Translations under genes and position numbers: made by a program | Notes under the pieces: model-generated | Databases searched by the model: none | The model's input: only the letters and a program-made list of their open reading frames with translations | What the model was told of the DNA's origin: nothing | Shown here: positions 1,890-61,426 of the stretch, in pieces | Layout: every line of letters begins with the position of its first letter | Numbering within the stretch: the first letter of the stretch is position 1 | Assembly: GCA_016204385.1 (NCBI GenBank) | Contig: JACQKW010000013.1 | Location: forward strand, 12,507-76,506 | Direction: 5' to 3' | Length of the DNA stretch: 64,000 nt | From: Candidatus Liptonbacteria bacterium | GTDB lineage: Bacteria; Patescibacteriota; Minisyncoccia; UBA6257; 2-01-FULL-56-20

Positions 1890-2019
1890 GTTTTTCTGAT
1901 GTTCCCGCGTGCCCCCGCACCGAACGCCGGAGCATGAAAAGAGTCTTACGAAACGATACGCCGCAGAAGATGGCGACGGTTTCGGATAGATGTTTCTCCG
2001 CATTAGGTGTGGGGGTTGA

Positions 2020-3202: not shown

Positions 3203-4585
3203 TTATATCATAGATTGAATACCTCGAAGTTTTTTGTGATAGGTGATCGCAAAGCGGTGCGCTTCGTCGCGGACGCGGATGAGCGTTCTTTTCTCTACGC
3301 CCTTGGGGATTATGCCGATTATGTCGTTACGTTTCCGCTCCGGGCCTTTCGCGATGCCGATCACAGGAATTTTAAGGCCGGCCTCGGAGAGCACGTGCTT
3401 CGCCGCATTTACCTGTCCCCTGCCGCCGTCAATCAAAATGAGATTCGGAAGCGGCCACCCTAAATCGCCGTGGGCGATCGGGTGTCTGAACCGCCGCCGA
3501 AGCACTTCTTTGAGCATTCCCACATCGTCCGATTTCTGGATTGTCCGAATTTTGAACTTGCGATACTCGTTTTTATCGGGCTTGTCTCCTCTGAAAACCA
3601 CCATCGAGCCCACCGCGGACGTTCCGGAAATGTTCGAGATGTCATAGCCCTCGATGCGATAATGAGGAGTGAGAATTGAGAAGTGAGTAGTGAGCTCGTT
3701 GTCGCCGATTAAGGCAACATCCTGAATGTGCTGTAGCGCAAAAATCTGGCGGCGAATTGTTTCCGCTTTTTCAAATTCAAGCGCTTTGCTCGCCGCCTTC
3801 ATTTCATGTTCAAGCGACGTGAGGATCATCCCCTTTTTGCCGCGAAAGAACAGCTTGAGATTCTTGATATTCTTTGCATACTCTTTTTGGTTTATCGCAC
3901 CCACGCACGTGCCCGGGCAAAGCCCGATTTCATATTCAAAGCATGGCCGCCTTCGGCTCTCATAATGCGAATCTTCGAATGTGTGCGAATGCTGCCTGCC
4001 CGACTTTGCCTGAGGCAAACTCAGGCGGGCGGGCGAATTGCGAATCCACCGATTGTCGACTGGCAGATTTGGATGAGTACCATAAGGGAAAATTCGCCGC
4101 ATGATTTTGAGCGCCTCGCGGATGCTCCCGGCCGAAGTAAACGGTCCATATCTCTCCCCTGCCGGTTTGGACTTGCCTGCCTGCCCAAGGCCCCGCATTT
4201 GCGGAGCCTCGCCTTTGGCGGGGCGTGGCCGATAGACATGGCCGCGCACAAGGAGGACGCGCGGAAACGCTTCTTTCGTGAACTCCACATAGAGAAAACT
4301 CGTGTCGTCTTTCTCGCGGACATTGTAGGGCGGCTGGTGCTTCTTGATGAGTTCCGCTTCAAGAATAAGCGCCTCGATTGCCGTGTCGGTTTTCTTATAC
4401 TCGATCTTTTTAATTTCGCGTACGAGCTTTTGGATGCGGTAGTCGTGTGGGCGCAGAAAATAGCTCGACACCCGCCGCCGCAAGTTTCCCGCTTTGCCGA
4501 TGTAGAGAATTTTGCCTCTCTCGCCCTTCATGAGATAAACGCCGGGCGAAATAGGCAATTTTTCATAAAGAGTTTTCATGTTCAC
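3203..4585 (-). CDS. uvrC: excinuclease ABC subunit C (short form, no C-terminal HhH2)
   Basis: GIY-YIG N-terminus (PGVYLMKGERGKILYIGKAGNLRRRVSSYF), UVR-like helix (LEHEMKAASKALEFEKAETIRRQIFAL), and an endonuclease domain ending RDEAHRFAITYH. Contains repeat-derived in-frame inserts (see findings). Confidence 0.88.
   Translation of the reverse strand: MNMKTLYEKLPISPGVYLMKGERGKILYIGKAGNLRRRVSSYFLRPHDYRIQKLVREIKKIEYKKTDTAIEALILEAELIKKHQPPYNVREKDDTSFLYVEFTKEAFPRVLLVRGHVYRPRPAKGEAPQMRGLGQAGKSKPAGERYGPFTSAGSIREALKIMRRIFPYGTHPNLPVDNRWIRNSPARLSLPQAKSGRQHSHTFEDSHYESRRRPCFEYEIGLCPGTCVGAINQKEYAKNIKNLKLFFRGKKGMILTSLEHEMKAASKALEFEKAETIRRQIFALQHIQDVALIGDNELTTHFSILTPHYRIEGYDISNISGTSAVGSMVVFRGDKPDKNEYRKFKIRTIQKSDDVGMLKEVLRRRFRHPIAHGDLGWPLPNLILIDGGRGQVNAAKHVLSEAGLKIPVIGIAKGPERKRNDIIGIIPKGVEKRTLIRVRDEAHRFAITYHKKLRGIQSMI
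3667..3694. repeat. 4 x 7-bp tandem NNNTGAG repeat inside uvrC
   Basis: gagtgag aattgag aagtgag tagtgag. It encodes LTTHFSILTPH on the minus strand. Confidence 0.7.
3988..4045. repeat. palindromic element B, copy 1 (in frame inside uvrC)
   Basis: aatgctgcctgcccgactttgcctgaggcaaactcaggcgggcgggcgaattgcgaat. About 96% identical to 62400..62454. Internal dyad cctgagg/ctcagg and outer gcctgcccg/cgggcgggc. Confidence 0.85.
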
Positions 4586-4653
4586 TATTTTACCTGTTCC
4601 TCACAAAAAACAAAAAAATCCGAACTATTTCCTGTGACAACCTTGAGGCGGCG

Positions 4654-4692
4654 TACTGTCCTGTTTGACGACCGTTCAGTAGGACAGTAATT
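4654..4692. repeat. hairpin element F, copy 1
   Basis: tactgtcctgtttgacgaccgttcagtaggacagtaatt with an 8-bp stem actgtcct/aggacagt. Paralogous to 9578..9616. Confidence 0.7.
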
Positions 4693-4734
4693 TATAGAAA
4701 TAAGAAGGAAAAAGCCTCAAAACGAGGTTCAAGA

Positions 4735-4764
4735 TAAAAAAGACCGCCCGAGGAGGCGGTCTTT
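4735..4764. terminator. bidirectional intrinsic terminator after the giant gene
   Basis: aaaaaagaccgcc-cgaggag-gcggtctttt: A-run, 7-8-bp GC stem, T-run. Confidence 0.7.
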
Positions 4765-4781
4765 TAATGCGCATTACGTTT

Positions 4782-7700
4782 CTACCGTTCGTACATTTTC
4801 CAGTTCCCGAGCATGATCTGTCCGATGCTCGTGTCCTGCCACACGACATCCCAACCCCTCAACGCAGTCGGCGATAAAGGATCGTACCTCAAGATCGTTG
4901 GCGGCGATGGCAGCGTTACGCTGAGCGGAAGGTTGGTCCCGGGGTTCACGACAATGATTTCGTCTTTTGTGTCGGGCCCAACCACAAGCGCGATCAATTC
5001 TGCTCGAAGTCGGGCCTCCTGCGCCGCTATTTTCCCTAATTTTTGGTCCTCATTCTTTTTGTCCTTTGCATCGGTTGAGCTTATAAGCGCGCTCAATTCC
5101 GCTCGAAGTCGGGCTTCCTGCGCCAATAGTTTCTCTAATTTTTTGCCCTCATTCTTGCCGTGTGTTTCATTTTGTCTGCCGTTCTTCCCTTTTCCATTCG
5201 AGTCGAGCGGAGTGCCGAGCGTTTCTTCATCGGGCGGCGGCGGCGCGAACACATTTGGCCTTGTGTTGGGCGCGTTCACATTCCCTGCGTAGAGACGGTC
5301 GCCGGAGCGGAGTTGGTGGACGCCAAACATGCTCCCTTCAAGAGGCCCGGTAAAGTATTTGAGCGACCACGTGCTTGAGGGAGCATTGAAGTTTTGCGCA
5401 TGCAGGAATGACGGATTATGGCTTATCAATTCGTCTACCCCGTCCCCGTCAATATCCGCAGAGAGAAAAGCATCTTCTAAACTGTGGCCTGTCACGCCAA
5501 GATTCCATGACCCGATTGTACCGAACACGCGAGGTGTAACGAGGCGGTCTGGACTGTCGTTCCACTGCGTGACCCAATCGTTGAATGCAGTATTGAAGTT
5601 TTGGATCTGTGCGTTTGTGCCGTCGTTCACACCATCTCTATTCTGGTCACCGTCACGACCTTGAAATATGTTTAGGAGGCCTATGGTCGAAAAGAGACTT
5701 TGGGTGGACGTTGCTGCATCAAGATTCAGAAAGTTGAACTGATCTCCGAATCGAATCGGCCAACTTGATTCGTTTCCACATCCTCGTGGGCTACATACGC
5801 TTGAAGCCGTCAGCTGATGCGAATACCTTGCCATTTCCTGCCAAGGATCTGCTCCACCTCGGAAGCGGATAATGCTTGCCTCGGAAATTCCGCCTGCTCC
5901 CGGGGAGAAGCGCTCGCGAGCATTATTCCCGATATAAGGATACATGATGAGCATTTCCTCCCGCTCGTCCGGCTCGTTCCCGAAATTCCCGATATTTCCA
6001 AATATGATCATGTCCGTGGGATGCAGTTTCCACGGGCCCAGCATGCCGCTAATAATGCCGCTCACGCTGTCCCGGTTATCCCACACGGTTTCCCACGAAT
6101 AGGTCGCGGTCGCGCAGTCAAACCCGCCGCTCCGGAAGATTTTCTGGAGCATGGCGCGCGCCGGAGTCCCCGCGCTTATGCTTAAAAGTTCTGCTCTCCC
6201 CTCAAGCGCGAAGAGCCGCGTTTCGGGCAGGAAGAACCGGTCGCCCTTGTCTATCGTCCACGCGCCAAGCGAACCCTGTCCTTGCGAAATGACATTCCAG
6301 ATACCGTCCCTGAATTGCTGAACCATGAATTTTTTCGTCATCGTGTTTACGGTGAGCACCTCGTTTCCGCATCCGGTCATGTCGCCCACGAGCACGATGT
6401 CGCTTGACGGTATTTTCCCTTTGTCGGCATAGGTTCCGTCGCTCCACAACAGCTTATTAGAAAATTCTTCCTGCGAAGTGAACCTGTCCAATTCGTTGAA
6501 AATAAAAGCTTCGGTCGAGGTTGGGGGCCTCACGCCGGCGGTAAAGACGTGTTCCACATTAACTGGCTCGTACCAAATGGCGTCAAACGGGGAGTTCGAT
6601 TTGACGTTCGGATCCATTTGGAATCCAAACTTCGATTGGTCTTCCGGCGCGTACCAGATGTCGCTTGGGACGGTTTGCGGTCCTGCTACGCCATACTCAA
6701 CCTCAGTAACCCATCCGTAGCTTATTTCTTTCCGGGTGGTGACATTTTCGGTGACCGAACTTGTGCCCGCCGCTTCATAATTCAATGCGCTAAAGAGAGG
6801 GATAAACGGGCTGTGATCGAGCTGAGATGTGATATTGCACGGCGGCCCGTTTTCGCATCTCAACATAGCTGGAGCCGTTGAGTTGTTGAACTTATCTTTA
6901 AGCTTTCGCGCCGCAAAGGTTGAGCCGCCGGGGATCATATCCAAATCCTGCCATCCGCTTAAAATTTCATATTCGTAAGATAAATATAACGATCTGCCTA
7001 TGGGAATTCGTATAGGAGGACCAAAGGGATCTAAGGGATTTGGAATTATGATAAACCCGGCTGGCTTTGTTACCCACGCATCGAGAATTCTCTCTCCCGC
7101 AGTTCTCGAAACCCCTTCGGTTCGAGCATCAATATCAAGGCCGTACCACAAGCTTCTGAAAGTGATGGACTCGAGATGTTCAAACGTTCGGGCAAGAAAG
7201 TCGTTAGATTGCTTTACTACATTATCCTGGGTAAGTCCCTGGCCGCTCCCCTGCGACATCGCCACCTTTCGCAGTTTCTGCGGCATACCGGTGCCGCCGT
7301 TTAACGCCCTCACCTCGTCGTAGAACCTGGAGTGATAGCTATCCGGGAATACCAAGCCGGTATTGTAGTGCCGCCGGAGCAGTTCCTTTGCCGCTGGGCT
7401 GTTGATGGCAATGCGGAACGGTATTGCGTCGTCGTTAAATTGCGAGAGGAAATCGAAAAGTCCCTGCAAGCTCACGGGAATGTGGGCGCCCACAAACGGG
7501 CCGTCAATCGCGATCCAGAGGCCCGTGTGGTGGTCTATGTTCTGCCCCTCGAGCTTCGCCAAGGCATAGCGCGTAACCTGCGTGCCCATCGAACCCGCCA
7601 TTACGATAGCCCGCTGGTTTTCATATCCCGGCTTCATGGTAAGCCACGGCTTGGGAAGATGAATGTTTTTCAAAATCTCCATAAGCGCAAATGCATTCCT

Positions 7701-9338
7701 CTGGATAAAATCCTGGCCGTTCGCGTAATCCACGAGAAGAACGTCATACCCTTTGTCACGCATCTTGTTGACGGTCGGTTCCAGATCGCGGTACAAAGTG
7801 GTTGGAGTCCTGTTCTGCTCTATGTCAAAGCCGTCCACAAGAATGACTAAATTTTTTACAAAGCAACGGTCGGGATCAAAAACAGGTTTCCGATACGTCG
7901 CAGGATAGATGCGCGTGTTTAAAATGCCGGAGGCCGTGTTGCCCAAGTAGTCAGCGTAGAGAGGGCCGGTTACTTTAGGATCCTCTCGTTCTTGGTCATG
8001 AATTCCCAGCCAATCGATTACTTGAGACAAGTCGGCGATGGTGTAGCGGTAGGGGGCAAAGAATACCGGCCAAGGAATTTCGGCTGAATTCCACCACGGA
8101 GGAGTGCTTGTCGCATTAAAGAACGCTCCGGCGCTTGTCTGCGGCGGCCACTCCGCCTCTGGCCACCATACTGGCCTCACCTTAGGAAACTTTCCCTGAA
8201 GAAGCTTTGGAATGCTGCAATCGGTTCCCCTGTTCCCGCCGGGCGGCGGATAGTAATCAACGGTACCCACCGCGTATCGGACTTGGCCATCAATGGTTGC
8301 GCGGATGTGATAGGTGAGGTGCGCCACCATAGTGACGCCTGGCGGCGCCTCTTGCACGAATGTTGCCCGGGACATGTCCCACGGATATTTTTGATCGAGT
8401 TCAACGGGGATAAACGTGTCCGGACTAATGCCGTCTCCGCGCGGCACGCCGGGAAATCTGATGGCAAGGTCAGTAACCGTCTTTGAAGCCGGGTTCTTGA
8501 TTGCAAACTGCGATGGCAGTGAAAAAAGCAGGTAGTTTCCGATCGTGCCGTCGGCCTTCTCATTCAAAAATCCTGTGCCGAAGAAAAGAGAGGTGAGCGG
8601 CGTGGTTGAACTCGCGGGAGTTTCTTTGACATAAGAAATTCTCCCGTCTCCGCGAACCCAATTCTTCTGAAAATCTTGATTGAAAGGAGTGCTTGTTGGA
8701 TATGGAGTCCCGTCTTCATAGAAAAGACTTAGGCGGCCGTTCGTAAAATCCTCCGGATTGAGTTCGTTGTAGTCTATGGCGCCGATCGCGATTGGATTCA
8801 CGCCGCCCTCGACGATCGGCTGCGCCGCCAATGCAAGATTATCCGCCTTCGGCAGGAGATTTTCATTCGTAAACGCACTCCTCCGAAGATCCCCGTACGC
8901 ATTCCGAAGATCGGAGTGGGAAAGCTTGATAGCTTCAAACGTCTGTGGCAAACCCTCGGTCGCAATGCCATTCGCCTTCTTTACGAGGTCCGTATATAAT
9001 ATCGAACCCATGTCAAGCAGGATGCCGGTCCCGATCTTCGCCGCAGGATAGTTTTCATACGTTTCTCTAGTGTTATCTCGAAACGTCGGCAGCGGGCCTT
9101 GGTTCCCTCCACCAAACGGGTCTAGGTTATCACCAGGGTTTTTGATTATCGGCGTCGTGCCGCCGATGGGAAAATCTATGGGCGGTTCTGCACAGTTATC
9201 GAGGAGAGCGCAGTTGTCGCCCGGAAATTGGGCGTACGCGACAAATGCGAACAGAAAAACGGCAAGCGTGGCAAAGCTCGCCGCAAGAATTATCTGTAGC
9301 TTTTTTCCGCCGACCCAGCTTGTAAGATGAGGCGACAT
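4782..9338 (-). CDS. giant secreted protein (~1518 aa) with lipase-like alpha/beta-hydrolase core, FG-GAP/VCBS-like segment and C-terminal coiled-coil repeats
   Basis: Signal anchor KKLQIILAASFATLAVFLFAFVAYA. Nucleophile-elbow-like AGSMG in RAIVMAGSMGTQVTRYAL. DIDGDGVDELI calcium-binding/FG-GAP-like motif. 33-aa tandem repeat (AQEARLRAEL...). The ORF-track start at 9392 lies in repeat DNA; the start at 9338 (MSPHLTSWVGGKK) is preferred. Confidence 0.75.
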   Translation of the reverse strand: MSPHLTSWVGGKKLQIILAASFATLAVFLFAFVAYAQFPGDNCALLDNCAEPPIDFPIGGTTPIIKNPGDNLDPFGGGNQGPLPTFRDNTRETYENYPAAKIGTGILLDMGSILYTDLVKKANGIATEGLPQTFEAIKLSHSDLRNAYGDLRRSAFTNENLLPKADNLALAAQPIVEGGVNPIAIGAIDYNELNPEDFTNGRLSLFYEDGTPYPTSTPFNQDFQKNWVRGDGRISYVKETPASSTTPLTSLFFGTGFLNEKADGTIGNYLLFSLPSQFAIKNPASKTVTDLAIRFPGVPRGDGISPDTFIPVELDQKYPWDMSRATFVQEAPPGVTMVAHLTYHIRATIDGQVRYAVGTVDYYPPPGGNRGTDCSIPKLLQGKFPKVRPVWWPEAEWPPQTSAGAFFNATSTPPWWNSAEIPWPVFFAPYRYTIADLSQVIDWLGIHDQEREDPKVTGPLYADYLGNTASGILNTRIYPATYRKPVFDPDRCFVKNLVILVDGFDIEQNRTPTTLYRDLEPTVNKMRDKGYDVLLVDYANGQDFIQRNAFALMEILKNIHLPKPWLTMKPGYENQRAIVMAGSMGTQVTRYALAKLEGQNIDHHTGLWIAIDGPFVGAHIPVSLQGLFDFLSQFNDDAIPFRIAINSPAAKELLRRHYNTGLVFPDSYHSRFYDEVRALNGGTGMPQKLRKVAMSQGSGQGLTQDNVVKQSNDFLARTFEHLESITFRSLWYGLDIDARTEGVSRTAGERILDAWVTKPAGFIIIPNPLDPFGPPIRIPIGRSLYLSYEYEILSGWQDLDMIPGGSTFAARKLKDKFNNSTAPAMLRCENGPPCNITSQLDHSPFIPLFSALNYEAAGTSSVTENVTTRKEISYGWVTEVEYGVAGPQTVPSDIWYAPEDQSKFGFQMDPNVKSNSPFDAIWYEPVNVEHVFTAGVRPPTSTEAFIFNELDRFTSQEEFSNKLLWSDGTYADKGKIPSSDIVLVGDMTGCGNEVLTVNTMTKKFMVQQFRDGIWNVISQGQGSLGAWTIDKGDRFFLPETRLFALEGRAELLSISAGTPARAMLQKIFRSGGFDCATATYSWETVWDNRDSVSGIISGMLGPWKLHPTDMIIFGNIGNFGNEPDEREEMLIMYPYIGNNARERFSPGAGGISEASIIRFRGGADPWQEMARYSHQLTASSVCSPRGCGNESSWPIRFGDQFNFLNLDAATSTQSLFSTIGLLNIFQGRDGDQNRDGVNDGTNAQIQNFNTAFNDWVTQWNDSPDRLVTPRVFGTIGSWNLGVTGHSLEDAFLSADIDGDGVDELISHNPSFLHAQNFNAPSSTWSLKYFTGPLEGSMFGVHQLRSGDRLYAGNVNAPNTRPNVFAPPPPDEETLGTPLDSNGKGKNGRQNETHGKNEGKKLEKLLAQEARLRAELSALISSTDAKDKKNEDQKLGKIAAQEARLRAELIALVVGPDTKDEIIVVNPGTNLPLSVTLPSPPTILRYDPLSPTALRGWDVVWQDTSIGQIMLGNWKMYER
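4986..5160. repeat. 2 x 99-bp tandem repeat inside the giant gene
   Basis: aagcgcgatcaattctgctcgaagtcggg... at 4986 and aagcgcgctcaattccgctcgaagtcggg... at 5085. Period 99 bp = 33 aa. Confidence 0.8.
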
Positions 9339-9382
9339 GTGAGTATGTGGAGAGCATAGTGCGGGGGGCTTAGGGGTGTCAA

Positions 9383-9521
9383 ACCCCCACACCTAACGTG
9401 GAGGTGTATTCACCTCGAAGCCCACACAATTCTTCACTACTCGTTGTTTTGGGGCATACCCTGTTTCAAGCAGATAACGCAGAATACCTTTTGCTTCGCG
9501 CTCCCCGTTAGGTGTGGGGGT
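9383..9521. repeat. 16-bp perfect inverted repeats flanking a 107-bp segment upstream of the giant gene
   Basis: acccccacacctaacg (9383-9398) and cgttaggtgtgggggt (9506-9521). Confidence 0.85.
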
Positions 9522-9577
9522 CAAATCACTGCAGTACGCGTCTCCAATCTCCTCCTTTTTCTTGCATTCCGCCATTC

Positions 9578-9616
9578 TATTGTCCTGTCTGACGGTCGTT
9601 CAATGGGACAGTAATT
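9578..9616. repeat. hairpin element F, copy 2
   Basis: tattgtcctgtctgacggtcgttcaatgggacagtaatt. About 81-88 bp further on it is followed by an aaaaaagaccgccc terminator-like hairpin (9667-9698), the same layout as copy 1. Confidence 0.7.
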
Positions 9617-9723
9617 CGCGTTACGGCAACAACGGAGGTGCTCGGTTGGTGACGCGGCCGGCAACGAAAAAAAAGACCGCCCGGGGTTCGGACGGTCGGG
9701 ATGCGATGAAGCGCAGGGCTTCG

Positions 9724-10116
9724 CTAGCTGGTGGAGCTCACTTCCCGCGGCGCGGGATACGGCGCGGGCTTCTTGTCCACCCACTGGAAGACCGGTGGTG
9801 GGGTCATGGCGAACAGGTACGTCCTCACGTCGCCGTCGCGGCGCCGGAGAACCACGTAGTGAGTATCCCCATACACCACCTCCTCGCCGATGGTCTCGTA
9901 GATTTCGTTTGGCTTGAGGAATCTCGTTGCCATCGGGATTCCCAGCGCTGCCCGCTTTTGCCTCTCTTGAGCAAACGGGAGAGAAAAACAACCGGCGAGC
10001 GCGAATAGTATGCCGATAGCGAACTCGAGTTCGTTATCTGCCCTAACAGTCGTTGTGCCCGCAAGAAACAGAAGCACGAGCGCGAGCAATCCGAAGAAAG
10101 ACCCATCTTTTTTCAT
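9724..10116 (-). CDS. small secreted protein, unknown function
   Basis: Signal peptide MKKDGSFFGLLALVLLFLAGTTTVRA. SD-like GAGAGGTG upstream of the ATG. Confidence 0.55.
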   Translation of the reverse strand: MKKDGSFFGLLALVLLFLAGTTTVRADNELEFAIGILFALAGCFSLPFAQERQKRAALGIPMATRFLKPNEIYETIGEEVVYGDTHYVVLRRRDGDVRTYLFAMTPPPVFQWVDKKPAPYPAPREVSSTS

Positions 10117-10255
10117 TTTTCACCTCTCAAAGAGCAAGGGGAAGCACCATTGCTTCGAACGCATTATACCACCCTCTTAATCTCCTGTCAAATTCTACTC
10201 AAATCGTATCATTCAACAATTCGCGCGAATGGTTCAGAGTAAGAAATGGCTTTGC

Positions 10256-13009
10256 TTATTTCAAAACTCGTCTCAAATACTCGCCCGTAAAACTCTCCTT
10301 TTTTCTTGAGATCTCCTCGGGCGTCCCGGCGGCGACCACTCTGCCGCCCTTGTCGCCTCCTTCGGGACCAAGATCAATCACCCAGTCGGCGGTTTTGATC
10401 ACATCTAAATTGTGTTCGATTACGACCACCGTATTTCCGCGCTCGACGAGCCGCTGGAGGACTTTGAGTAAATTGTCTACGTCCGCAAAATGGAGTCCGG
10501 TTGTCGGTTCATCAAGTAAATAAAGCGTTCTCCTCGTGTCACGTTTTCCAAGCTCCGCCGAGAGCTTGATCCTCTGCGCCTCTCCGCCCGAGAGCGTGGT
10601 GGCAGATTGGCCGAGTTCCAAATAGCCCAAGCCCACGTCTTCCAAAATGCTCAAGCGGTCGTGGAGATGCGGGATATCTTTAAAGAATTTCACCGCTTCC
10701 TCGATTGTGAGTTTTAGGATATCGTAGATGTTTTTACTTGCGCTCCTATCTTTCGAAGAAAGATGGGAGGGTGAATACTCTACTTCAAGCGTCTCGCGGT
10801 CGAAACGCTTGCCTTTGCACACTTCGCATTCCACGTAGACCGTCGGCAAAAAGTGCATTTCTATCGCGATATAGCCGTGCCCCTCGCAGTTCTCGCACCT
10901 GCCGCCCGGGACGTTGAAGCTGAACCGCCCGGGTTTCCAGCCGCGCACGCGCGCGTCCTCGGTTGAGGCAAAAAGCTCGCGGACAAACGTCCACGCGCCC
11001 ACGTAGGTTGCCGGATTCGAGCGCGGCGTGCGTCCTATGGGCGACTGGTCAATGTTGATGACGCGGTTAATGTACTCGGTGCCGAGAATCGCATTGACTG
11101 AGGTTGGTCTGTGCCGCCCCGACGCTCCAGTCGGGGTCCCGACCCCGCGGTAGCGGGCGTCGGGATTGAACTTGTTTGCAAGCGTCTTAAAAATCACATC
11201 GTAGACCAAGCTCGATTTTCCCGAACCCGAGACGCCGGTCACCGCCGTAAGGCGCCGCAAGGGAACATCCACGTTGATATTCTGCAAATTATTTGCCGTG
11301 GCGCCTTTCACTTTTAGAAAATCATGTCCGCCAGCTGGCGGATTCGCGACCTTCCGCCGCTCTTTCGGCACTTCGATGAACTGGTGGCCGCGAAGATAGT
11401 CGAGCGTGAGCGAATTGTTCTTTTTTACATCCTTAATGATTTCTGGGATTGTTCCCTGCGCGATGATTTTCCCGCCGTGCACTCCCGCACCCGGCCCGAT
11501 ATCCACCAAATAATCGCTCTTACGGATGGTCTCCTCGTCGTGCTCGACCACGATGATGGTGTTCCCGAGGTCGCGGAGCTCGTGGAGCGTCTTGATGAGT
11601 TTCGCGTTGTCCTTTTGGTGGAGGCCTATGGTCGGCTCGTCCAAAATATAGAGCGTTCCCACGAGCCGCGAGCCGATCTGCGAGGCGAGCCGGATGCGCT
11701 GTGATTCTCCGCCGGAGAGCGTCCCCGCCCTCCGTTCGAGCGTGAGATAATCGAGCCCCACGTCAATCATGAACTTCAGACGGTTTTTTATCTCGCGGAG
11801 CGGTGTTTCCGCAACAAGATAGCGGCCCGTTGCCGGTTGGCCGCTATCTTGTTTAAAACCCAGCGGTTTTAACCCGCTCTCCGCCGGTTGGCGGATCGCT
11901 TTTCCGCCACGGGAAAACTCCCGTTTTCCCGACCCCTTTCCCTCGTCTCGTAATTCTTCGAATTTCGATCCGCCTTCCTTAAGCTGTGCTTCGAGCTTAC
12001 CGAAAAACTCATGCGCGTGCGCGATCGAAAATTCCACCACGCTTGCGATATTCTTCCCGTCAATTAATACATTCAAGCTCTCTTCGCGCAAGCGTTTTCC
12101 GAGGCATGCAGGACAGATCTTTTCCGACCATATTTCTTCCGTGCCAAGCCCGTGGCACGTTTGGCAGGCGCCGTAGGGGCTATTGAAAGAAAAAAGGCGC
12201 GGTTCGATCTCGGGAAACGAAAAACTGTCCTGCGGGCAGGTGAATTTTGCTGAAAGAGAAATTTCGTCGTCCGTAATGATCGTTACCACGTCATTTCCAT
12301 ACTTAAGGGCGGATTCTATCGCTTCCGCTAATCGAAGCCGGTTGTCCTTGTCTTTATAATCCATACCTGACGGAATGCGATCCACCACAAGCTCTATCGT
12401 GTGCTGTTTGTACCGCGAGAGTTCTATGCGGTCGCGGAGCATGTGCATTTTTCCGTCAATCCGCACCTCGCGGAATCCGGCGTTCAGGAAATCGTAGAGC
12501 ATCTGGTAGTACTCCCCCTTTCTGCCCCGCACGGCAGGGGCGAGAATGAGTAAGTTTTTTCCTGATTTGTTCTTTCCTGCGATATCAATAACGGCATCCA
12601 CGATCTCCTCGTTCGTCATCTTTTTGATCTCCCTGCCGCATTTTGGGCAGAACGGTTTCCCGAGGCGCGCAAAAAGCACGCGGAGATAGTCGTAGATTTC
12701 GGTGATCGTCGCGACCGTCGAGCGCGGATTGTGCGAGTGGCTTTTCTGGTCTATGGAAATCGAGGGCGAGAGGCCTTCTATTTCGTCCACGTCCGGTTTG
12801 TCCAAGCGTCCCAAAAACTGCCGCGCGTACGCCGAGAGCGATTCGATGTAGCGCCGCTGGCCTTCGGCGAAGATCGTATCGAACGCCAAGCTCGATTTCC
12901 CCGAACCGGAAAGCCCCGTAAAGACGATCATCTTGTCGCGCGGGATTTCAAGATTGATGTTCTTTAAATTGTGCTCGCGTGCGCCGCGGATTATGATTTT
13001 ATCCTTCAT
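10256..13009 (-). CDS. uvrA: excinuclease ABC subunit A
   Basis: [20 protein letters not shown] start. Walker [24 protein letters not shown] and a second [11 protein letters not shown]. Zinc modules CPKC...CQTCHG and CENCEGHG...CEVCKG. ABC signatures LSGGE. The ORF-track N-terminal extension (to 13108) was rejected. Confidence 0.95.
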
Positions 13010-13101
13010 GAACGATGAAAACTCCCCTCCGAGCCGCCTAGTAGGGGGGTACAGAAGAAGTGTAACGCGTAATTTTAAAAAATGCAACGATCTGCAAACA
13101 T

Positions 13102-13133
13102 TTAACAATTCCTACGATCGTAGGAATTGTTAA
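13102..13133. repeat. perfect 32-bp palindrome with ACGATCGT core
   Basis: ttaacaattcctacga|tcgtaggaattgttaa, about 95 bp upstream of the uvrA ATG. Confidence 0.9.
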
Positions 13134-13366
13134 TATTCATTCGGTCTGGCATGGAGTATTCGCGGGCGCCGCGAATAAAGAAAATGCCCGCGCTTGCGCA
13201 CGGGCATTGAAATTCGCATCGAAGAGCGCGCTATTCGATATGCCAACGCCTGGATTTTATGGTCCGGCGAAGTCGACCCCCTAAACTCCGGGGTGCTCCA
13301 CAAGGGTTGATCTTATCTCTCCCGTGGTGGCGTATCGAACGGCTGCTCGACCGATGTTCTTTCGTT

Positions 13367-14287
13367 TCAGGGTACTGCGACTGGCCTTGACCTCGTGGTC
13401 TCGTCTACGCCAGAAAGCTCTTCGTGGGCTCCGCGGAGATGGCGTTCGAGATTATGCGCAAGGAGCATCCGCTCTTTGCAGAGCGGGCACCGGTAATGCA
13501 TCTCGGGCTTGCCTTCCGGATCTGTGCGCGAAAACGTGTCGAATTCGAAGGCGTACCATGCGCCGTTAAACATGATGGTGGCAGTCCTCGGTCCTTTGAG
13601 GAGCACCTCGTTTTCTCGCCCGTTTTCGCCGCGGCGTTTGCCGAGCACGAACATGCCTGCGCCGACGAGGAACACGAGCAACACGCTTGCGCCCGCGAGC
13701 CAGAAGTTGTTCTTGCGGAGAGCGGTAATGCGCGAGAGTTCAGCCACTAATGCGGCAAGGCGCTCGTCGCGATCGGTGATCTGCGAATCCTTAAGCGCCA
13801 CGGCTTCGCCCTGCGCCTTTCCGATCTTTTCGAGCTCGCCTCGGAGCGACGCTATTTTGCCTTCGAGCTCCTGCGCGCGCGTTTCTAGCTGCGCTGATTT
13901 TCGCCGCTCGTGGTCGAGTTCTTCGGTGAGCGCGATGACGTGGTTCACTCTCTCCCTTCGAGCGGAAAGACGGTCACGCGCCATGATGAGCCGGGATGTT
14001 TCGGCAATCTCCGCTCCGGGTTCCCTATAACAGGGCAACGGAACCGTGATTTCGGCACCAAGCGGCAAACGCCGCAGGTTCTGCTCCGGCGGGATGCCGG
14101 AGATGCGGATCACCGCCGAGAGCCAATCCATGCTGCAGCCATTCCGTTCGAGCGCCTGTGTAATGCCTTCGCCCTCTTGGAGCTTCATCACGATGGTTCG
14201 GGAACCCTCGCGCGCGGACGAGTGTCCGAAGGCGCTCACGAAACAGGCAGAGAGCAATGCCAAAATCCTTAATGCGGACCGCTTCAT
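13367..14287 (-). CDS. membrane-anchored coiled-coil protein with C-terminal zinc-finger-like motif
   Basis: Signal MKRSALRILALLSACFVSAFG. Long coiled coil (ELDHERRKSAQLETRAQELEGKIASLRGELEKIGKAQ). TM WLAGASVLLVFLVGAGMFVL. C-terminal CPLC...HNLERHLRGAH. SD GGGAGGG before the ATG at 14287. Confidence 0.55.
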   Translation of the reverse strand: MKRSALRILALLSACFVSAFGHSSAREGSRTIVMKLQEGEGITQALERNGCSMDWLSAVIRISGIPPEQNLRRLPLGAEITVPLPCYREPGAEIAETSRLIMARDRLSARRERVNHVIALTEELDHERRKSAQLETRAQELEGKIASLRGELEKIGKAQGEAVALKDSQITDRDERLAALVAELSRITALRKNNFWLAGASVLLVFLVGAGMFVLGKRRGENGRENEVLLKGPRTATIMFNGAWYAFEFDTFSRTDPEGKPEMHYRCPLCKERMLLAHNLERHLRGAHEELSGVDETTRSRPVAVP

Positions 14288-14552
14288 TTCCCACCCTCCC
14301 TTCCTTGTGCCGTTCATCGGCGACAGGTTTTAACTTCAGTTCACTCTGAAACGTGGTTGATATTCCGTTTTCAATGTGCCAAACGAACGACTGGAAAAGT
14401 AGCATTTCGCACGATGCGTGTCAATCCTTCGACTATGTTCAGGATTGACCTGGATTTTATCCCTCATCTTTAATTAACGACGTCCGACGTCGTAATGTGG
14501 AAGTGTTTCACTTTTCCTGCTACACCGCAGCACTTTCGCGGAAAGTGCTGGG

Positions 14553-16667
14553 TCAGGTTTTATGGCTAAGAATTCTTCGCTGTTGGCTTGAATTCTTAGA
14601 CAAAGCCCTTATTTCATCGCGAAGAATCGCCGCTAATTCGAAATCCAATTGCCGCGCCGCTTCCTTCATCTCGCGTTCTTTTTTCTTTATGAGTTCGGCA
14701 ATTGCGGTTTTTGATTTCGGGAGTGGTTTTGTCTCAAGCGCAAGAATTTCGTCAATATTCGGCAGTATATCCTTTATCTCTTTTTTGATCGTCGTGGGCG
14801 TGATGCCGTGTTTCTTGTTGTACTCAAGCTGGAGTTCTCTTCTACGCTCGGTTTCATCTATCGCGCGCCGGATGGAGCCCGTGATGTGGTCGGCGTAGAT
14901 CAGGACTTCTCCCGCTACGTTTCGCGCCGCGCGGCCGATGGTCTGGATAAGCGACGTCTCGCTCCTTAAAAATCCTTCTTTGTCGGCGTCCAAAATCGCC
15001 ACAAGCGACACCTCGGGCAAGTCCAACCCCTCTCGGAGAAGGTTCACTCCCACAAGCACGTCAAATTCCCCTTTCCGCAAGCTCGTCAAAATCCGTATCC
15101 GGTCGAGCGTTTTTACGTCGCTGTGAAGATAGGTCACTTTCATTTTTCCCAATAACTTACCATCGTGACGATCGTTAGGATGGTAAGTTGAGAGATATTC
15201 TGTTAAGTCCTCGGCCATTTTCTTTGTGAGCGTTGTGACAAGCACTCGTTCTTTTTTCGCCACGCGTCCCTCTATTCGCGGTATCAAGTCATCCACCTGT
15301 CCTCGCGCGGGGCGCACGGTGATCTTCGGGTCCACAAGGCCTGTGGGGCGGATGATCTGCTCCACGATCTGCCCTAAGCTCGCTTGCCCTGAGGTACTCG
15401 AATGGGTTGAAGGGTCGCTCTTTTTTCGCTCGTATTCCGAGGGCGTTGCCGAGGTATAGATGATCTGCCCGACCCGCTCGCCGAATTCCTTAAAGGTAAG
15501 AGGGCGGTTGTCGGCGGCGGACGGCAGTCGAAAACCGTATTCGATGAGGGTTTTCTTCCGCGAGGCGTCTCCGGCATACATGCCGTTTAACTGCGGCACG
15601 GTCACATGCGATTCGTCAATTACCGTAAGAAAATCGGCTTGCCCTGAGGTACTCGAATGGGTCGAACGGGGGAAATAATTAAGCAATGTCTCCGGCGGTT
15701 CCCCTGCGGCGCGGCCGGATAAGTGCCGTGAATAATTTTCGATGCCGTGGCAGTAGCCGACTTCCTTCATCATGGCGATATCGAACTTTGTGCGCCGCTC
15801 GAGGCGTTCCGCCTCAAGAAACAGTTTCTTGTTTTCAAAATACTTCAGCCGTTCTTTGAGCTCTTCTTTAATTGCCGTGATCGCGCGCTCCCGCTCAAGC
15901 GGAGGCGTGATGAAGTGCTTTGCTGGCGCGATATAGATTTCTGACACCGTCGGGGTTTTCTCGGGAACAAAACCTTTCACGGGGTCAATCTCATAAATTT
16001 TCGTTATCACGCCGTTCTTGAGTTCAAAATTATAAATCACTTCCCTGTCCGGAGGCATTACTTCCCAATTGTCGCCGCGGAGTCGGTACGTGCCGCGCTT
16101 GAGGTCGCTCGTCGTGCGCGTAAATTGAAGCTCAATGAGCTTTCGGGCAAATTTCTTGCGGTCAATCCTGTCCCCTACTTTGAAATGGAAAATGTTTTCC
16201 GCATAGACCTCCGGCGCGCCTAAACCGTAGATGCAGGAAACGGACGCCACCACGATCACATCAGGCCGCGTAAGGAGCGCGGTCGTCGCCGCATGCCGGA
16301 GCTTGTCTATCTCGTCGTTGATCATCGCCTCTTTCTCGATATACGTGTCGGTCGTCGGCATGTACGCCTCCGGCTGGTAGTAGTCGTAGTATGAGACGAA
16401 ATAGTTCACGGAATTGTTCGGAAAAAGCTCGCGGAATTCGTTTGTAAGCTGGGCGGCAAGCGTTTTGTTGTGCGCGATCACGAGCGTGGGTTTCTGAATC
16501 TCCGCGATCACGTTCGCGACCGTAAACGTCTTCCCGCTTCCGGTAACCCCAAAAAGCGTCTGGTGCCCATAACCCTTCTTAATGCCTTCCACGAGCGCGC
16601 GAATGGCTTTCGGCTGATCACCCGAGGGTTTGAATTTTGAGATTAGTTTGAATGACTTTTGTAACAT
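14553..16667 (-). CDS. uvrB: excinuclease ABC subunit B
   Basis: [22 protein letters not shown] start. Walker [15 protein letters not shown] box ([11 protein letters not shown]), helicase motifs, C-terminal UVR domain ([13 protein letters not shown]). Carries two identical 26-bp in-frame inserts. Confidence 0.95.
15155..15188. repeat. imperfect 34-bp palindrome with ACGATCGT core inside uvrB
   Basis: acttaccatc-gtgacgatcgttag-gatggtaagt. Encodes [13 protein letters not shown] on the minus strand. Confidence 0.75.
15382..15407. repeat. 26-bp exact direct repeat, copy 1 (in uvrB)
   Basis: gcttgccctgaggtactcgaatgggt. Encodes THSSTSGQA. Confidence 0.9.
15637..15662. repeat. 26-bp exact direct repeat, copy 2 (in uvrB)
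   Basis: Identical 26-mer 255 bp from copy 1, also in frame (THSSTSGQA). Confidence 0.9.
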
Positions 16668-16700
16668 CTCTATACGGCAAAAACCGCCTGCGTCTTGGGA

Positions 16701-16750
16701 TGCAGGGGTACTGCAAAAGAAATTGTAGACTACTTGAACCAAGAAATCAA
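16701..16750 (-). promoter_or_regulatory. putative uvrB promoter (TTGATT-17-TACAAT) with TGCAG-N5-CTGCA dyad at the predicted start site
   Basis: Minus strand: TTGATT (16750-16745), 17-nt spacer, TACAAT (16727-16722). The dyad TGCAGTACCCCTGCA lies at 16715-16701. Confidence 0.5.
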
Positions 16751-22988: not shown

Positions 22989-23173
22989 CCACAACATATG
23001 CACGGGTTATCGAGAACTTATCCAGACCGCATATCCCATGTCATTGATACAACGCGTATGAATCCTGCGCTCACTGTGTAGAGAGTGGGCAAAGCTTGTA
23101 TGGGTGTGAGGGTGTGCCCCCGCACCCATGTACTTCCCGACATGAAAACAGCTTCGAAAAAACTTAGCCGCTC

Positions 23174-23821
23174 TCATATCTTCGACAAGGGGCATAGTGA
23201 ATGGGTGTGGGGGCGTGCGGGACAATATTTCCGTCCGTAGTCAATCAAGCGATACGTAAAGTCAAACCACTCTTTTTTCGGCAAAATCTTCATTAAATCC
23301 TGCTCGATTTTATTTGGGTCTACATGGTTTGTAAGTCCCAGTAATCTCGAGAGCCGGCGGACGTGGGTGTCTACCGCGATTCCTTCCACCACGCCGTAGG
23401 CATTCCCGAGTATCACGTTTGCGGATTTTCTCCCAATGCCGGGAATGGCGAGCATCTCATCCATTGTTTTGGGAAGCGTGCCGTGAAATTTATTTTTCAC
23501 CACTTTTGCCGCGGCGAGGATATTTTTCGTCTTCGCGCGGTAAAATCCGGTCGGGCGCACATCGCGCTCAAAAATTTTAGGTTTCGCACGCACGTAATCG
23601 TCGAGTGTTCGATATTTTTTGAACAGCGTTTCGGTAACCTCGTTTACCTTCTTATCCGTGCACTGCGCGGAGAGCACCACCGCGACCAAAAGTTCCCAGT
23701 GAGTATTGTATTTCAAAACAATTCTTGCGCCCGGCAAAAGTTTTTTGAGGAGGCGGACGATTCGCGTTGCTTTCTTTCTTCGCGAAACGAGCACGCGCTC
23801 CAAAACCTTTTTTTTCTCCAT
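23174..23821 (-). CDS. nth: endonuclease III (HhH-GPD) with atypical C-terminus
   Basis: LVAVVLSAQCTDKKVN. HhH LLAIPGIGRKSANVILG. Catalytic region VDTHVRRLSRLLGL. The C-terminus YCPARPHTHSLCPLSKI has only 2 of the 4 canonical Fe-S cysteines. Confidence 0.85.
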   Translation of the reverse strand: MEKKKVLERVLVSRRKKATRIVRLLKKLLPGARIVLKYNTHWELLVAVVLSAQCTDKKVNEVTETLFKKYRTLDDYVRAKPKIFERDVRPTGFYRAKTKNILAAAKVVKNKFHGTLPKTMDEMLAIPGIGRKSANVILGNAYGVVEGIAVDTHVRRLSRLLGLTNHVDPNKIEQDLMKILPKKEWFDFTYRLIDYGRKYCPARPHTHSLCPLSKI

Positions 23822-29289: not shown

Positions 29290-29619
29290 TTATTTATTTT
29301 TCCAAAGCTCGCGGAGAATCCGGCATGGTTCCACGATCCTCGGATCAGTGATTGTATAGTTGGCATTGAGCCCGTCTCTACGCACGGTGACCAGCCGCGC
29401 GTGGCGCAAAAGTGCTAAATGTTGGGATACATTTGCTTTCGGCAAGCTAAGGATTTCGATCAGTTGCTCCACGGTGCGTTCCCCGTACTTTTTGAGTATA
29501 TTCAAAATTTCAAGCCGTTTAGGATTGGCAAGGATTTTATATATTTCTGCATTTCGCTCGTAGGTTGTTTTTGGAAATGGAGATTTCACCCCGTTAGAAA
29601 TTTTTGCTGTAGTAGTCAT
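29290..29619 (-). CDS. ArsR/SmtB-family metalloregulator
   Basis: ILANPKRLEILNILK...VSQHLALLRHARLVTVRRDG. Confidence 0.85.
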   Translation of the reverse strand: MTTTAKISNGVKSPFPKTTYERNAEIYKILANPKRLEILNILKKYGERTVEQLIEILSLPKANVSQHLALLRHARLVTVRRDGLNANYTITDPRIVEPCRILRELWKNK

Positions 29620-29670
29620 ACCTAAATTATTGACCCGTTTGTAACGATGTATAATTTCTAACGGGGTTTC

Positions 29671-31070: not shown

Positions 31071-31114
31071 TCCCTCATATCGGCCTATTCGTACGAATAC
31101 GCCGATATGAGGGA
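31071..31114. repeat. 44-bp near-perfect palindrome
   Basis: tccctcatatcggcctattcgt|acgaatacgccgatatgaggga (one mismatch). Core ATTCGTACGAAT. Confidence 0.9.
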
Positions 31115-37261: not shown

Positions 37262-37649
37262 TTACGCTGCCGCCCCACCCAGCGTCATTTTTTCAAAAAA
37301 TGGTGTTGGGTGGAGCGGCCGTGGTGACCTCCTAAAACTGTTTGTTTTGAATGAGTGCTCTCCGACCGCTCCGCTATCAGTATAGGACGTGCGGAGAGGT
37401 AGGCAAGCAGCTGTGAAAAAAACCCCGCCCTCTCTGCACACGATCGGGGAAGGCAACAGGCGTGTACGGCTGTCCATCGCCAGACTTCCTTACAATCACG
37501 CGCGTAGAGGGCGGGGCCAAACAGAAGGAGGTAAACAGTCTTTAAATGAATACTCAAAGACTATTTGCGCTCATTCGAAGCAAGTATACCACGGCATAGG
37601 TACTCCGGTCAACCCCCCGCCCATGCATAGGCGGGGGGTTGCGTGCCCG

Positions 37650-40120: not shown

Positions 40121-40191
40121 TATAAAAAAGGCGCGATTACGATCGCGCCTCACGTGAACCCCCACACCAAGATTGATGGTGGGGTGGTGAA

Positions 40192-40792: not shown

Positions 40793-40826
40793 TAAAGTCA
40801 TCTTAACGATCGTTAAGATGACTTTA
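40793..40826. repeat. perfect 34-bp palindrome with ACGATCGT core
   Basis: taaagtcatcttaacga|tcgttaagatgacttta. Confidence 0.9.
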
Positions 40827-53237: not shown

Positions 53238-54683
53238 ATGGTCACCAAAAAACAAAAACAAATTTGGGATTTTGTTCAAAAATTTCTTTCCCAAAAAGGA
53301 TTCTCTCCCACCCACGAAGAAATAAGAAAACATTTCAAACTTCGGGCTGTTTCAACGGTTGCGCAGCATATTAAAGCACTAGAAAATAAGGGGCTTATTG
53401 CCAAACAAAGCAATCAAAGACGCGGTATTGAAATCACAAAATCAGAGCCGTTAGTAAAAATTCCCCTCCTCGGCACAATTAGTGCGGGTCAACCCATAGA
53501 AGCAATTCAAGACAAGGAAATGATCGCTGTTCCTAAGAGCAAAATTCCTCCTTCGTCAGAAGTTTATGCTCTCCGGGTAGTCGGCAGTAGTATGGTTGAT
53601 GAAAATATAAATGATGGGGACATTGTTTTGGTCCGCCAACAAGCAACAGCAGAGAATGGGCAAAAAGTTGTAGCTCTTATTGATAACCACGATGCGACAC
53701 TAAAGAAGTTTTATAAAGAGCGAGGGTATGTCCGTTTGCAACCAGCAAACAAAACTATGGAGCCGCTTATTTTCCGAAACGGGCGGGATATTTCAATACA
53801 AGGGATAGTGCTTGATGTTATTCGCGAGGAGGGAAATTCTAAGATTCAATTATCAGAGGAATATAAAGAATCGGGAAGGAGTCTATTACAAAATGCATAT
53901 TATAAAAAGCAGGGATTTATTCTGTATCATGGAAATTCTTTAGGTATCCTATCTAAACTTCCGGAAGCTTCCGTAGATATGATTTTTTCAGATCCTCCGT
54001 ACAATCTTTCAAATGGAGGGTTTACTGTCCACGCGGGTAGAATGGTTAGTGTTAATAAAGGTGAGTGGGATAGAAGTAAGGGATTTCAGGATGATTACGA
54101 CTTCCATTACAATTGGCTCGCGGCCGCTAAAAGGGTTTTGAAGCCTGGTGGTAGTTTATGGGTTAGTGGAACCTATCATTCGATTTACCAATGCGGTTAT
54201 GCACTTCAGGCTCTTGGCTACCATATTTTGAATGACATCTCGTGGTTTAAGCCCAATGCGGCGCCAAATTTAAGTTGTAGATTTTTCACGGCGAGTCATG
54301 AAACTTTAATATGGGCGAGGAAAGAAAAAAAAGGAAAACATATTTTTAATTATAAAACGATGAAAGATGGGATTTGGAATGGAGACTTTCTCAAAAAACC
54401 TAATATGCAAATGCGTTCAGTGTGGGCTATTGGAACTCCAAAACCAGAAGAAAAAAAATTTGGCAAACATCCAACCCAAAAACCTTATGAACTATTGAAG
54501 CGCATTGTTCTTGCCAGCACTAACAAGGGAGATTTAATTATTGATCCTTTTACCGGTAGTTCAACAACGGGCATGGCGGCATATCTCCAAAACAGAAATT
54601 TCATCGGTATCGATACCGAAAAGAAATATTTAGATTTATCTATCAAGAGATTGGAAGATCTGAGTAAAAGATCTCTAGTATAG
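53238..54683 (+). CDS. LexA-like repressor (wHTH + S24 peptidase) fused to beta-class N6A/N4C DNA methyltransferase (CcrM/HinfI-like)
   Basis: Residues 1-200 contain the LexA DNA-binding domain (THEEIRKHFKLRAVSTVAQHIKALENKGLI), the cleavage site ISA83-G84QP, GSS117M and ATLK155KF. Residues about 230-481 contain FSDPPYNL (motif IV) followed by IIDPFTGSSTTGMAA (motif I), i.e. beta-class order. TATAAT (53226-53231) ends 7 nt before the ATG, so the transcript may be leaderless. Confidence 0.85.
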   Translation: MVTKKQKQIWDFVQKFLSQKGFSPTHEEIRKHFKLRAVSTVAQHIKALENKGLIAKQSNQRRGIEITKSEPLVKIPLLGTISAGQPIEAIQDKEMIAVPKSKIPPSSEVYALRVVGSSMVDENINDGDIVLVRQQATAENGQKVVALIDNHDATLKKFYKERGYVRLQPANKTMEPLIFRNGRDISIQGIVLDVIREEGNSKIQLSEEYKESGRSLLQNAYYKKQGFILYHGNSLGILSKLPEASVDMIFSDPPYNLSNGGFTVHAGRMVSVNKGEWDRSKGFQDDYDFHYNWLAAAKRVLKPGGSLWVSGTYHSIYQCGYALQALGYHILNDISWFKPNAAPNLSCRFFTASHETLIWARKEKKGKHIFNYKTMKDGIWNGDFLKKPNMQMRSVWAIGTPKPEEKKFGKHPTQKPYELLKRIVLASTNKGDLIIDPFTGSSTTGMAAYLQNRNFIGIDTEKKYLDLSIKRLEDLSKRSLV

Positions 54684-60967: not shown

Positions 60968-60969
60968 GG

Positions 60970-61041
60970 TGCGCGTTGCAGGGATCGAACCTGCCACCTC
61001 TCCGATGTGAACGGAGCGCTCTGCCACTGAGCTAAACGCGC
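60970..61041 (-). tRNA. tRNA-Val (anticodon CAC)
   Basis: GCGCGTT-TA-GCTC-AGTGGCA-GAGC-G-CTCCG-TTCACAT-CGGAG-AGGTG-GCAGG-TTCGATC-CCTGC-AACGCGC-A. Confidence 0.9.
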
Positions 61042-61307
61042 ATTCTTATTTTTCTCTCTTTGATAATCTTCTCAAGATAATCTCTTCTTTTCAACTTCTT
61101 GAGCTTTTTTTCAACGCTACGTGCCACTTCAATAGTCGAAAACTCTTGAGAGAATACGAGACGAAGCTCACCAAACCGCTTCGTTGACCAAGTAAAACCG
61201 CCTCTGTGGTGCCTAAATCGCGAACGCAAGTCCGTAGTGCTACCAACATACAATCTCTTGTCTCGCAAACTTTCCAAGATATAAACGTACCCGGTCATAT
61301 ATAGCAT
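61032..61307 (-). CDS. stand-alone GIY-YIG nuclease-domain protein (~90 aa)
   Basis: GYVYILESLRDKRLYVGSTTDLRSRFRHHRGG...E. Its stop overlaps the first 10 nt of tRNA-Val. The ORF-track extension to 61415 is hairpin DNA. Confidence 0.75.
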   Translation of the reverse strand: MLYMTGYVYILESLRDKRLYVGSTTDLRSRFRHHRGGFTWSTKRFGELRLVFSQEFSTIEVARSVEKKLKKLKRRDYLEKIIKERKIRMRV

Positions 61308-61321
61308 TTCAACCGACTGAG

Positions 61322-61365
61322 CCCCGACGAGCTCTGCTGTCGGGGCCCCGACGGTAACGTCGGGA
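61322..61365. repeat. two tandem CCGAC/GTCGG hairpins
   Basis: ccccgac-gagctctgct-gtcgggg (61322-61345) and ccccgacg-gtaa-cgtcggga (61346-61365). Same family as 60848-60867, 60868-60895 and 60938-60957. Confidence 0.8.
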
Positions 61366-61394
61366 CTACACGCGCTCAACTTCACCATCGTAAA

Positions 61395-61426
61395 CAAAAA
61401 AGCGCTTTTCTGCAAAGCGCTTTTTT
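61395..61426 (-). terminator. bidirectional intrinsic terminator after rplL
   Basis: aaaaaagcgcttt-tctgc-aaagcgctttttt. Confidence 0.8.

Follow-up and report, generated by a model that had tools for sequence, protein, structure and literature searches.

A probable MITE-type element, one of a family with shared terminal arms, lies upstream of a giant orphan gene in a Candidatus Liptonbacteria genome

The closest described counterparts of the element considered here are the Correia elements (CREE) of Neisseria, the pneumococcal RUP and the enterobacterial ERIC/IRU sequences, which resemble it in being short (≈65–160 bp) and non-coding, with terminal inverted repeats of ≈20–26 bp and short target duplications, and in occurring as dispersed intergenic copies that form long hairpins, often beside promoters. 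Short inverted repeats around a short segment upstream of a surface-protein gene are also the layout of a different class of elements, the invertible switches, exemplified by fimS in Escherichia coli, the Mpi-dependent invertons of Bacteroides and the cwpV and flgB switches of Clostridioides difficile; Mpi is a master invertase that acts on an inverted-repeat consensus common to several loci. Further likenesses are found in the REPIN/RAYT system (inverted conserved units, a variable spacer, a hairpin and intergenic copies) and, with respect to a 4–5 bp duplication, in the IS1380 family (including ISEcp1) and the Tn3-derived TIMEs. The genomes of the candidate phyla radiation (CPR)/Patescibacteria are small, and mobile DNA is believed to be scarce in them. 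The stretch analyzed here, referred to as the window, comprises 64 kb of a metagenome-assembled genome (MAG) of Candidatus Liptonbacteria, a CPR bacterium, and the original prediction from its sequence was that an inverted repeat upstream of a giant gene was either an invertible promoter switch or a miniature inverted-repeat transposable element (MITE). We find that the MITE half of that reading gains from arms shared with other short elements, enriched flanking repeats and no credible coding capacity, whereas the switch half is weakened by the lack of a promoter-like site within the segment and of a recombinase domain in the window, by a single observed orientation and by family interiors that are too short for a promoter.

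The predicted perfect 16-bp inverted repeats enclosing 107 bp are indeed present, with ACCCCCACACCTAACG at 9383–9398 and its exact reverse complement at 9506–9521, and form the perfect 16-base core of somewhat longer arms. The full inverted repeat consists of 21-nt arms (9383–9403 and 9501–9521) that are complementary at 20 of 21 positions, with one mismatch, and are spaced 97 nt apart. A search of the window with the 16-mer, allowing up to three mismatches, returned four matches against 0.16 expected, and perfect 16-nt inverted repeats within 200 nt are found at three loci in the real window and in 0 of 60 Markov-simulated windows; these comparisons confirm that the inverted repeat upstream of the giant gene is real and far above chance. 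The outermost A/T pair (9383/9521) belongs to 5-bp flanking direct repeats, TCAAA, located at 9379–9383 on the left and 9521–9525 on the right, which constitute a putative target-site duplication; the chance of a 5-mer flanking match at this locus is 0.0016. The MITE-like element proper is thus the 137 bp from 9384 to 9520, running from CCCCCACACC... to ...GGTGTGGGGG, with a left terminal inverted repeat CCCCCACACCTAACGTGGAG at 9384–9403 (plus strand) and a right terminal inverted repeat at 9501–9520 that reads CCCCCACACCTAACGGGGAG on the minus strand. Removal of the element with one copy of the direct repeat gives a reconstructed empty site that reads ...GCAGTGATTTGACACCCCTAAG... on the minus strand. 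As a single strand, the element folds into one long hairpin of −58 kcal/mol (z = −6.3).

The giant gene encodes 1518 residues on the minus strand (4782–9338; HY435_01325) and starts at an ATG that is also the NCBI start, with a GTG alternative start at 9392; the gap between the arm and this ATG is 44 nt, in keeping with the predicted location of the repeat upstream of the gene. Its product carries an N-terminal signal or anchor segment (KKLQIILAASFATLAVFLFAFVAYA) and has only a weak LCAT/lipase-like match in Pfam, over residues 573–622. On the other side of the element, and also on the minus strand, a gene for a 130-aa protein (9724–10116) is followed by an intrinsic terminator at 9665–9697. 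Both the giant protein and the 130-aa protein are orphans, each matching only itself in a database of 5.8 billion clusters. The wider neighborhood contains uvrC, uvrA, and uvrB on the same strand within 14 kb (3203–16742), with the giant orphan gene between uvrC and uvrA. The window also harbors four perfect or near-perfect palindromes of 32–44 bp (13102–13133, 15154–15189, 40793–40826, and 31071–31114), three of which are centered on ACGA|TCGT; one overlaps the start of uvrA, one is inside uvrB, and one is near tRNA-Glu. These palindromes resemble operators and are possibly a repair regulon signal. A separate 481-aa open reading frame at 53238–54683 (plus strand), which combines LexA DNA-binding, Peptidase_S24, and N6_N4 DNA methyltransferase domains, is an unusual LexA-type repressor–methylase fusion.

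A sigma-70-type consensus scan of both strands over 9200–9800, in which sites are defined by consensus match only, identified only two promoter-like sites, both on the minus strand. The proximal site, TTGACA-18 nt-TATGCT (9353–9382), has 10 of 12 consensus matches, ends 15 nt before the giant-gene ATG, and sits just outside the element on its giant-gene (downstream) side. Its −35 box consists of the target duplication, which reads TTTGA on the minus strand, followed by CA, and the sequence suggests that the TTGACA hexamer predates the insertion and survived it; the putative promoter at the giant gene would stay intact because the duplicated target regenerates TTGACA. The distal site, TTGAAC-18 nt-TAGAAT (9574–9603), lies upstream of the element, and its −10 box overlaps the ATG of a 60-aa open reading frame discussed below. 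The same scan found no promoter-like site inside 9404–9500 on either strand, so that the earlier failure to find a −35/−10 pair within the segment holds, with both sites outside it.

These results bear directly on the possibility that a site-specific recombinase, perhaps encoded at a distance, flips the 97–107 bp and thereby switches the giant surface-protein gene on or off. Inverted repeats do bracket the segment, and the geometry fits, with perfect repeats directly upstream of a gene for a large secreted protein; it is also general knowledge that one master invertase can serve several loci with a common inverted-repeat consensus, as Mpi does in Bacteroides. However, the promoter-like sites on both strands are confined to sequence outside the segment, and a Pfam search (E ≤ 10⁻⁴) of the ≈57 open reading frames of the 64-kb window, ≈15 of which have no match of any kind, revealed no Phage_integrase, Resolvase, or other recombinase domain, which agrees with the prediction that no recombinase is nearby. 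Two independent Logan assemblies from different runs (L001 and L002) are 100% identical to the window over 5505–10862 with contigs that run through the repeat, and the orientation of the segment is the same in all three assemblies. The runs SRR12113383 and SRR12113384 contain this locus at 100% identity. Moreover, target-site-like flanking duplications are not expected of an invertible segment, the interiors of family members described below are as short as 25–27 nt, too short for a −35/−10 pair, and other copies adjoin tRNA, murB, ECF sigma factor, and similar genes rather than genes for surface proteins. We regard a promoter switch at this locus as very unlikely.

The arm motif ACCCCCACACCTAAYGNGGAG occurs beyond the 9383 locus, and this wider distribution underlies our preferred reading of the locus as a MITE. 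The family-defining terminus is (A)CCCCCACACCTAAYGNGGAG; the left arm of the 9383 copy, with its flanking A, fits the family consensus ACCCCCACACCTAACGNGGAG at all specified positions. Public collections were scanned with CCCCCACACCTAAYGNGGAG or a close variant, which returned two MAG contigs (L003 and L004) and 15 metagenome contigs, and no match among viral contigs. An inverted partner arm is found 25–91 nt from the matched arm in L003, L004, L006, L013, L017, L018, and L019, and these contigs harbor eight complete elements, two of them in tandem in L019; one further element, in L016, is truncated by the end of the contig. Outside the window, elements are thus known from two further MAGs and from six contigs of metagenomes. 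The remaining nine matches (L005, L007–L012, L014, and L015) are single arms without a partner, in coding or low-complexity sequence, and we estimate that about this number is expected by chance. Look-ups of window proteins in an assembly index yielded nothing beyond short Logan contigs with the same sequence as the window, and no further copies there, and when the elements were compared with plasmids and phages by BLAST, matches did not rise above chance level.

Two definite copies are found in the 64-kb window, at the 9383 and 1911 loci. The second, decayed member spans 1911–2016 and retains an intact right arm (ACCCCCACACCTAATGCGGAG; 1996–2016, minus strand) and a degenerate left arm (GCCCCCGCACCGAACGCCGGAG). 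The right arm of this copy and the left arm in L017 agree at 21 of 21 positions, as do the left arm of the 9383 copy and the arm in L016 (21/21). A third candidate at 23117–23213, which matches the 1911 copy at its left end (13/13) and over a short part of the interior, was rejected: its right arm is the native coding sequence of endonuclease III, colinear with solved homologues to the stop codon, the region contains a local duplication of ≈45 nt, and only ≈13 nt are common to this sequence and the arm consensus. A half-site at 40159 was treated as chance or a relic. The endonuclease III gene itself (nth; 23174–23821, minus strand) has a TGA exactly at the position of the expected fourth Fe–S cysteine and a His in place of the second cysteine, and the sequence at 23071–23216 includes a degenerate ≈45-nt copy of the nth 3′ end ≈100 nt downstream; between this copy and the original lies an inverted CCCCCGCACCCAT arm. 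This 3′ region could represent a decayed Fe–S loop, a local rearrangement, or both.

Family elements range from 65 to 137 bp, with interiors of 25–97 nt that are mostly unrelated between copies; a short form of 65–66 bp (L003, L006, and both elements of L019, a and b) has in common a 25–26-nt loop, TGCTGGTNNNAACGCNCNAGGNATTN. All copies are intergenic. The L004 copy follows tRNA-Gly and precedes an ECF sigma factor gene, that in L006 is found directly at a stop codon, those in L003 and L019 lie between divergent genes, and that in L017 is upstream of murB. L017 and the window are syntenic (secA ... murB), and since the MurB proteins of the two are only 56% identical, the arms are conserved across clearly different organisms. 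A conserved hairpin upstream of murB is followed by the element in L017, but in the window this hairpin stands without a family element, a weak hint of presence/absence. The hairpin itself, ≈65 nt in length (GGAGCGG...AATGAGTG...CCGCTCC; 37313–37373 in the window and 10100–10165 in L017), has no match in Rfam and is a candidate cis-regulatory element or small RNA. The window contains in addition a set of G+C-rich inverted repeats with arms that start ACCCC or CAACCCC (37423–37516, 37610–37641, 2019–2058, and 29588–29667), among them CCCCGCCCTCT.../...AGAGGGCGGGG enclosing 50 nt; these may be terminators or further palindromic families. Finally, a small GIY-YIG domain protein of 118–127 aa (61032–61415, minus strand), which adjoins tRNA-Val at 60968–61041, may be the remnant of a homing endonuclease.

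The flanks of these elements bear on how they spread. With the element taken as CCCCC...GGGGG and expectations derived from local k-mer frequencies, direct repeats specific to each copy flank 5 of the 10 complete elements: three exact 5-mers against 0.017 expected (TCAAA at the 9383 copy, TTTAC in L004, and TAAAA in L018) and two 4-mers against 0.064 expected (TGAA in L003 and TAAA in L006). Copy-specific flanking duplications are a signature of transposition, from which we infer that the elements have transposed. The other five copies, including that at 1911–2016, have mismatched arms and lack a flanking repeat; absence of flanking repeats from half of the family is expected for older insertions, yet it weakens the case. 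The 9383 element also has other attributes of a MITE, in that it possesses terminal inverted repeats in addition to the target-site duplication, is small and non-coding, and belongs to a set of multiple dispersed copies. No autonomous partner with matching termini was found in the window or beside other copies, and no transposase domain was detected in the ≈57 open reading frames of the window (Pfam, E ≤ 10⁻⁴) or beside other family copies.

The same flanks help to distinguish the family from two other kinds of palindromic element. Two inverted, conserved units of ≈21 nt with a less conserved spacer between them, capable of forming a long hairpin, correspond to the geometry of a REPIN, and the tandem pair of elements in L019 and the exclusively intergenic location of the copies would also suit a REP/REPIN-like or IS200/IS605-derived palindromic element (PATE) moved as single-stranded DNA by an HUH (Y1) transposase such as a RAYT. 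Such elements insert without target duplication, however, whereas copy-specific repeats of 4–5 bp are enriched here; furthermore, the single arms are not self-complementary and so are not palindromic REP hairpins, and Pfam identifies no Y1 transposase or RAYT domain in the window, all of which makes this origin distinctly improbable. A solitary, integron-type attC-like site, with R′′ = ACCTAAC and R′ = GTTAGGT, is suggested by sequences within the arms that fit the attC consensus RYYYAAC and GTTRRRY, and by a length of 65–137 bp with conserved ends and a variable middle. Against this, pairing extends 8 bp past the R boxes and is continuous at the place where the stem of an attC site is interrupted by an unpaired central spacer and by extrahelical bases, AAT/ATT replaces the near-invariant AAC/GTT in several members, the window has neither a cassette array nor an integrase (Pfam), and flanking duplications are present; we consider an attC-like identity extremely unlikely.

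A further question is whether the hairpin is kept by selection, as a cis-regulatory leader, an RNase III or other processing site, a transcriptional insulator, or a small RNA, rather than by transposition. The single-strand fold is very stable, as noted above, the arms vary very little between hosts whose MurB identity is 56%, the loop of the short form is conserved, and transcription from the distal promoter-like site would pass through the element. The pattern of substitution argues otherwise: an RNAalifold consensus of six short forms is a stem only, with an unfavorable covariation term of +0.72, and substitutions at most of the variable pairs disrupt pairing without a compensating change, while the arm mismatches fit neither strand consistently as G–U pairs. 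Nor is there a match in Rfam at gathering or permissive thresholds, and the unrelated interiors of most copies, the heterogeneous genomic contexts, and the copy-specific flanking duplications, which point to insertion, are difficult to reconcile with such a role. We therefore think a functional hairpin maintained by selection alone unlikely. That distant hosts have near-identical arms could also be due to a host function of a different kind, in which a hairpin module is shared across Parcubacteria, the 21-nt arms are kept for a host or trans-acting protein, and the 9383 copy modulates or phase-varies the giant surface protein. Candidates for the protein that uses the arms would then be a recombinase encoded at a distance, which inverts or excises the segment, and a factor of the nucleoid or of RNA processing; we judge this reading to be quite unlikely.

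The MITE reading also accounts for a spurious gene call in the region. The 60-aa open reading frame (9393–9575, minus strand) starts 54 nt outside the element, runs through it, and stops at a TAG that the distal arm provides. Neither a Pfam match nor a homologue besides itself among 1.84 billion protein representatives was found for it, its codon usage is intermediate and uninformative, and the NCBI annotation does not include it, the locus tags 01325 and 01330 being adjacent. We judge this open reading frame to be fortuitous, a by-product of the insertion; the original prediction had regarded it as fortuitous as well, and the lack of homologues and of an NCBI annotation sustains that view.

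Considered together, we think it probable that the 9383 element is a MITE, mobilized in trans, that makes 4–5 bp duplications at T-N-A-A-like sites and inserted against a −35 box, leaving it intact. The proposed course of events is that a transposase encoded elsewhere would bind both ends of the element and direct its insertion into A/T-rich sites of the T-N-A-A type, with duplication of 4–5 bp; the 9383 copy would have inserted immediately next to the −35 box in the putative promoter of the giant gene. The family is present in this Liptonbacteria genome as well as in other uncultured bacteria, among which at least one is a syntenic relative. For the giant gene, the insertion is most likely neutral or mildly modulating, and any effect on expression is one that we infer from the arrangement of sites: upstream sequences may have been displaced, or a long hairpin may form in a read-through transcript from the distal promoter-like site. 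If the MITE reading is correct, near-identical ends at 56% MurB identity would mean that some transposase is active, or was recently so, and has been exchanged among lineages, and the arm motif offers a sequence tag with which to find it. On this reading there is also no need to claim phase variation of the giant surface protein, an attractive idea but one that lacks support.

Comparison with known systems sets the family apart in several respects. The family ends begin with a run of C, and the IS1380 family, listed in the ISfinder tables with ends of the form 'Cc' and direct repeats of 4–5 bp, would be a candidate source; Tn3 ends, in contrast, read 5′-GGGG inward, as opposed to 5′-CCCCC here. 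No IS1380- or Tn3-type transposase was found, and the IS1380 assignment is only a lead. Relative to the fimS, Mpi-dependent, and cwpV/flgB switches, the 9383 element lacks an internal promoter-like site and a recombinase in the window and has a single orientation in three assemblies, and its family has flanking duplications and, in some members, interiors too short for a promoter. Relative to REPIN/RAYT systems, the family differs in its flanking duplications and non-REP arms, and a RAYT domain was not detected in the window. The Correia, RUP, and ERIC elements remain the nearest in organization. From these the family is distinguished by its terminus, CCCCCACACCTAAYGNGGAG, by a 4–5 bp A/T-rich duplication where Correia and RUP elements duplicate TA, by interiors that are mostly unrelated between copies, by the absence of a known cognate insertion sequence, and by a CPR/Patescibacteria host; promoter, terminator, or RNase III effects are a feature of the Correia elements. 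The literature searched contains nothing relevant on the arm sequence or on MITEs in CPR bacteria, and with no match in Rfam either, the family appears to be undescribed. The kind of element, a MITE-type insertion, is an ordinary one, and the family is a new member of it.
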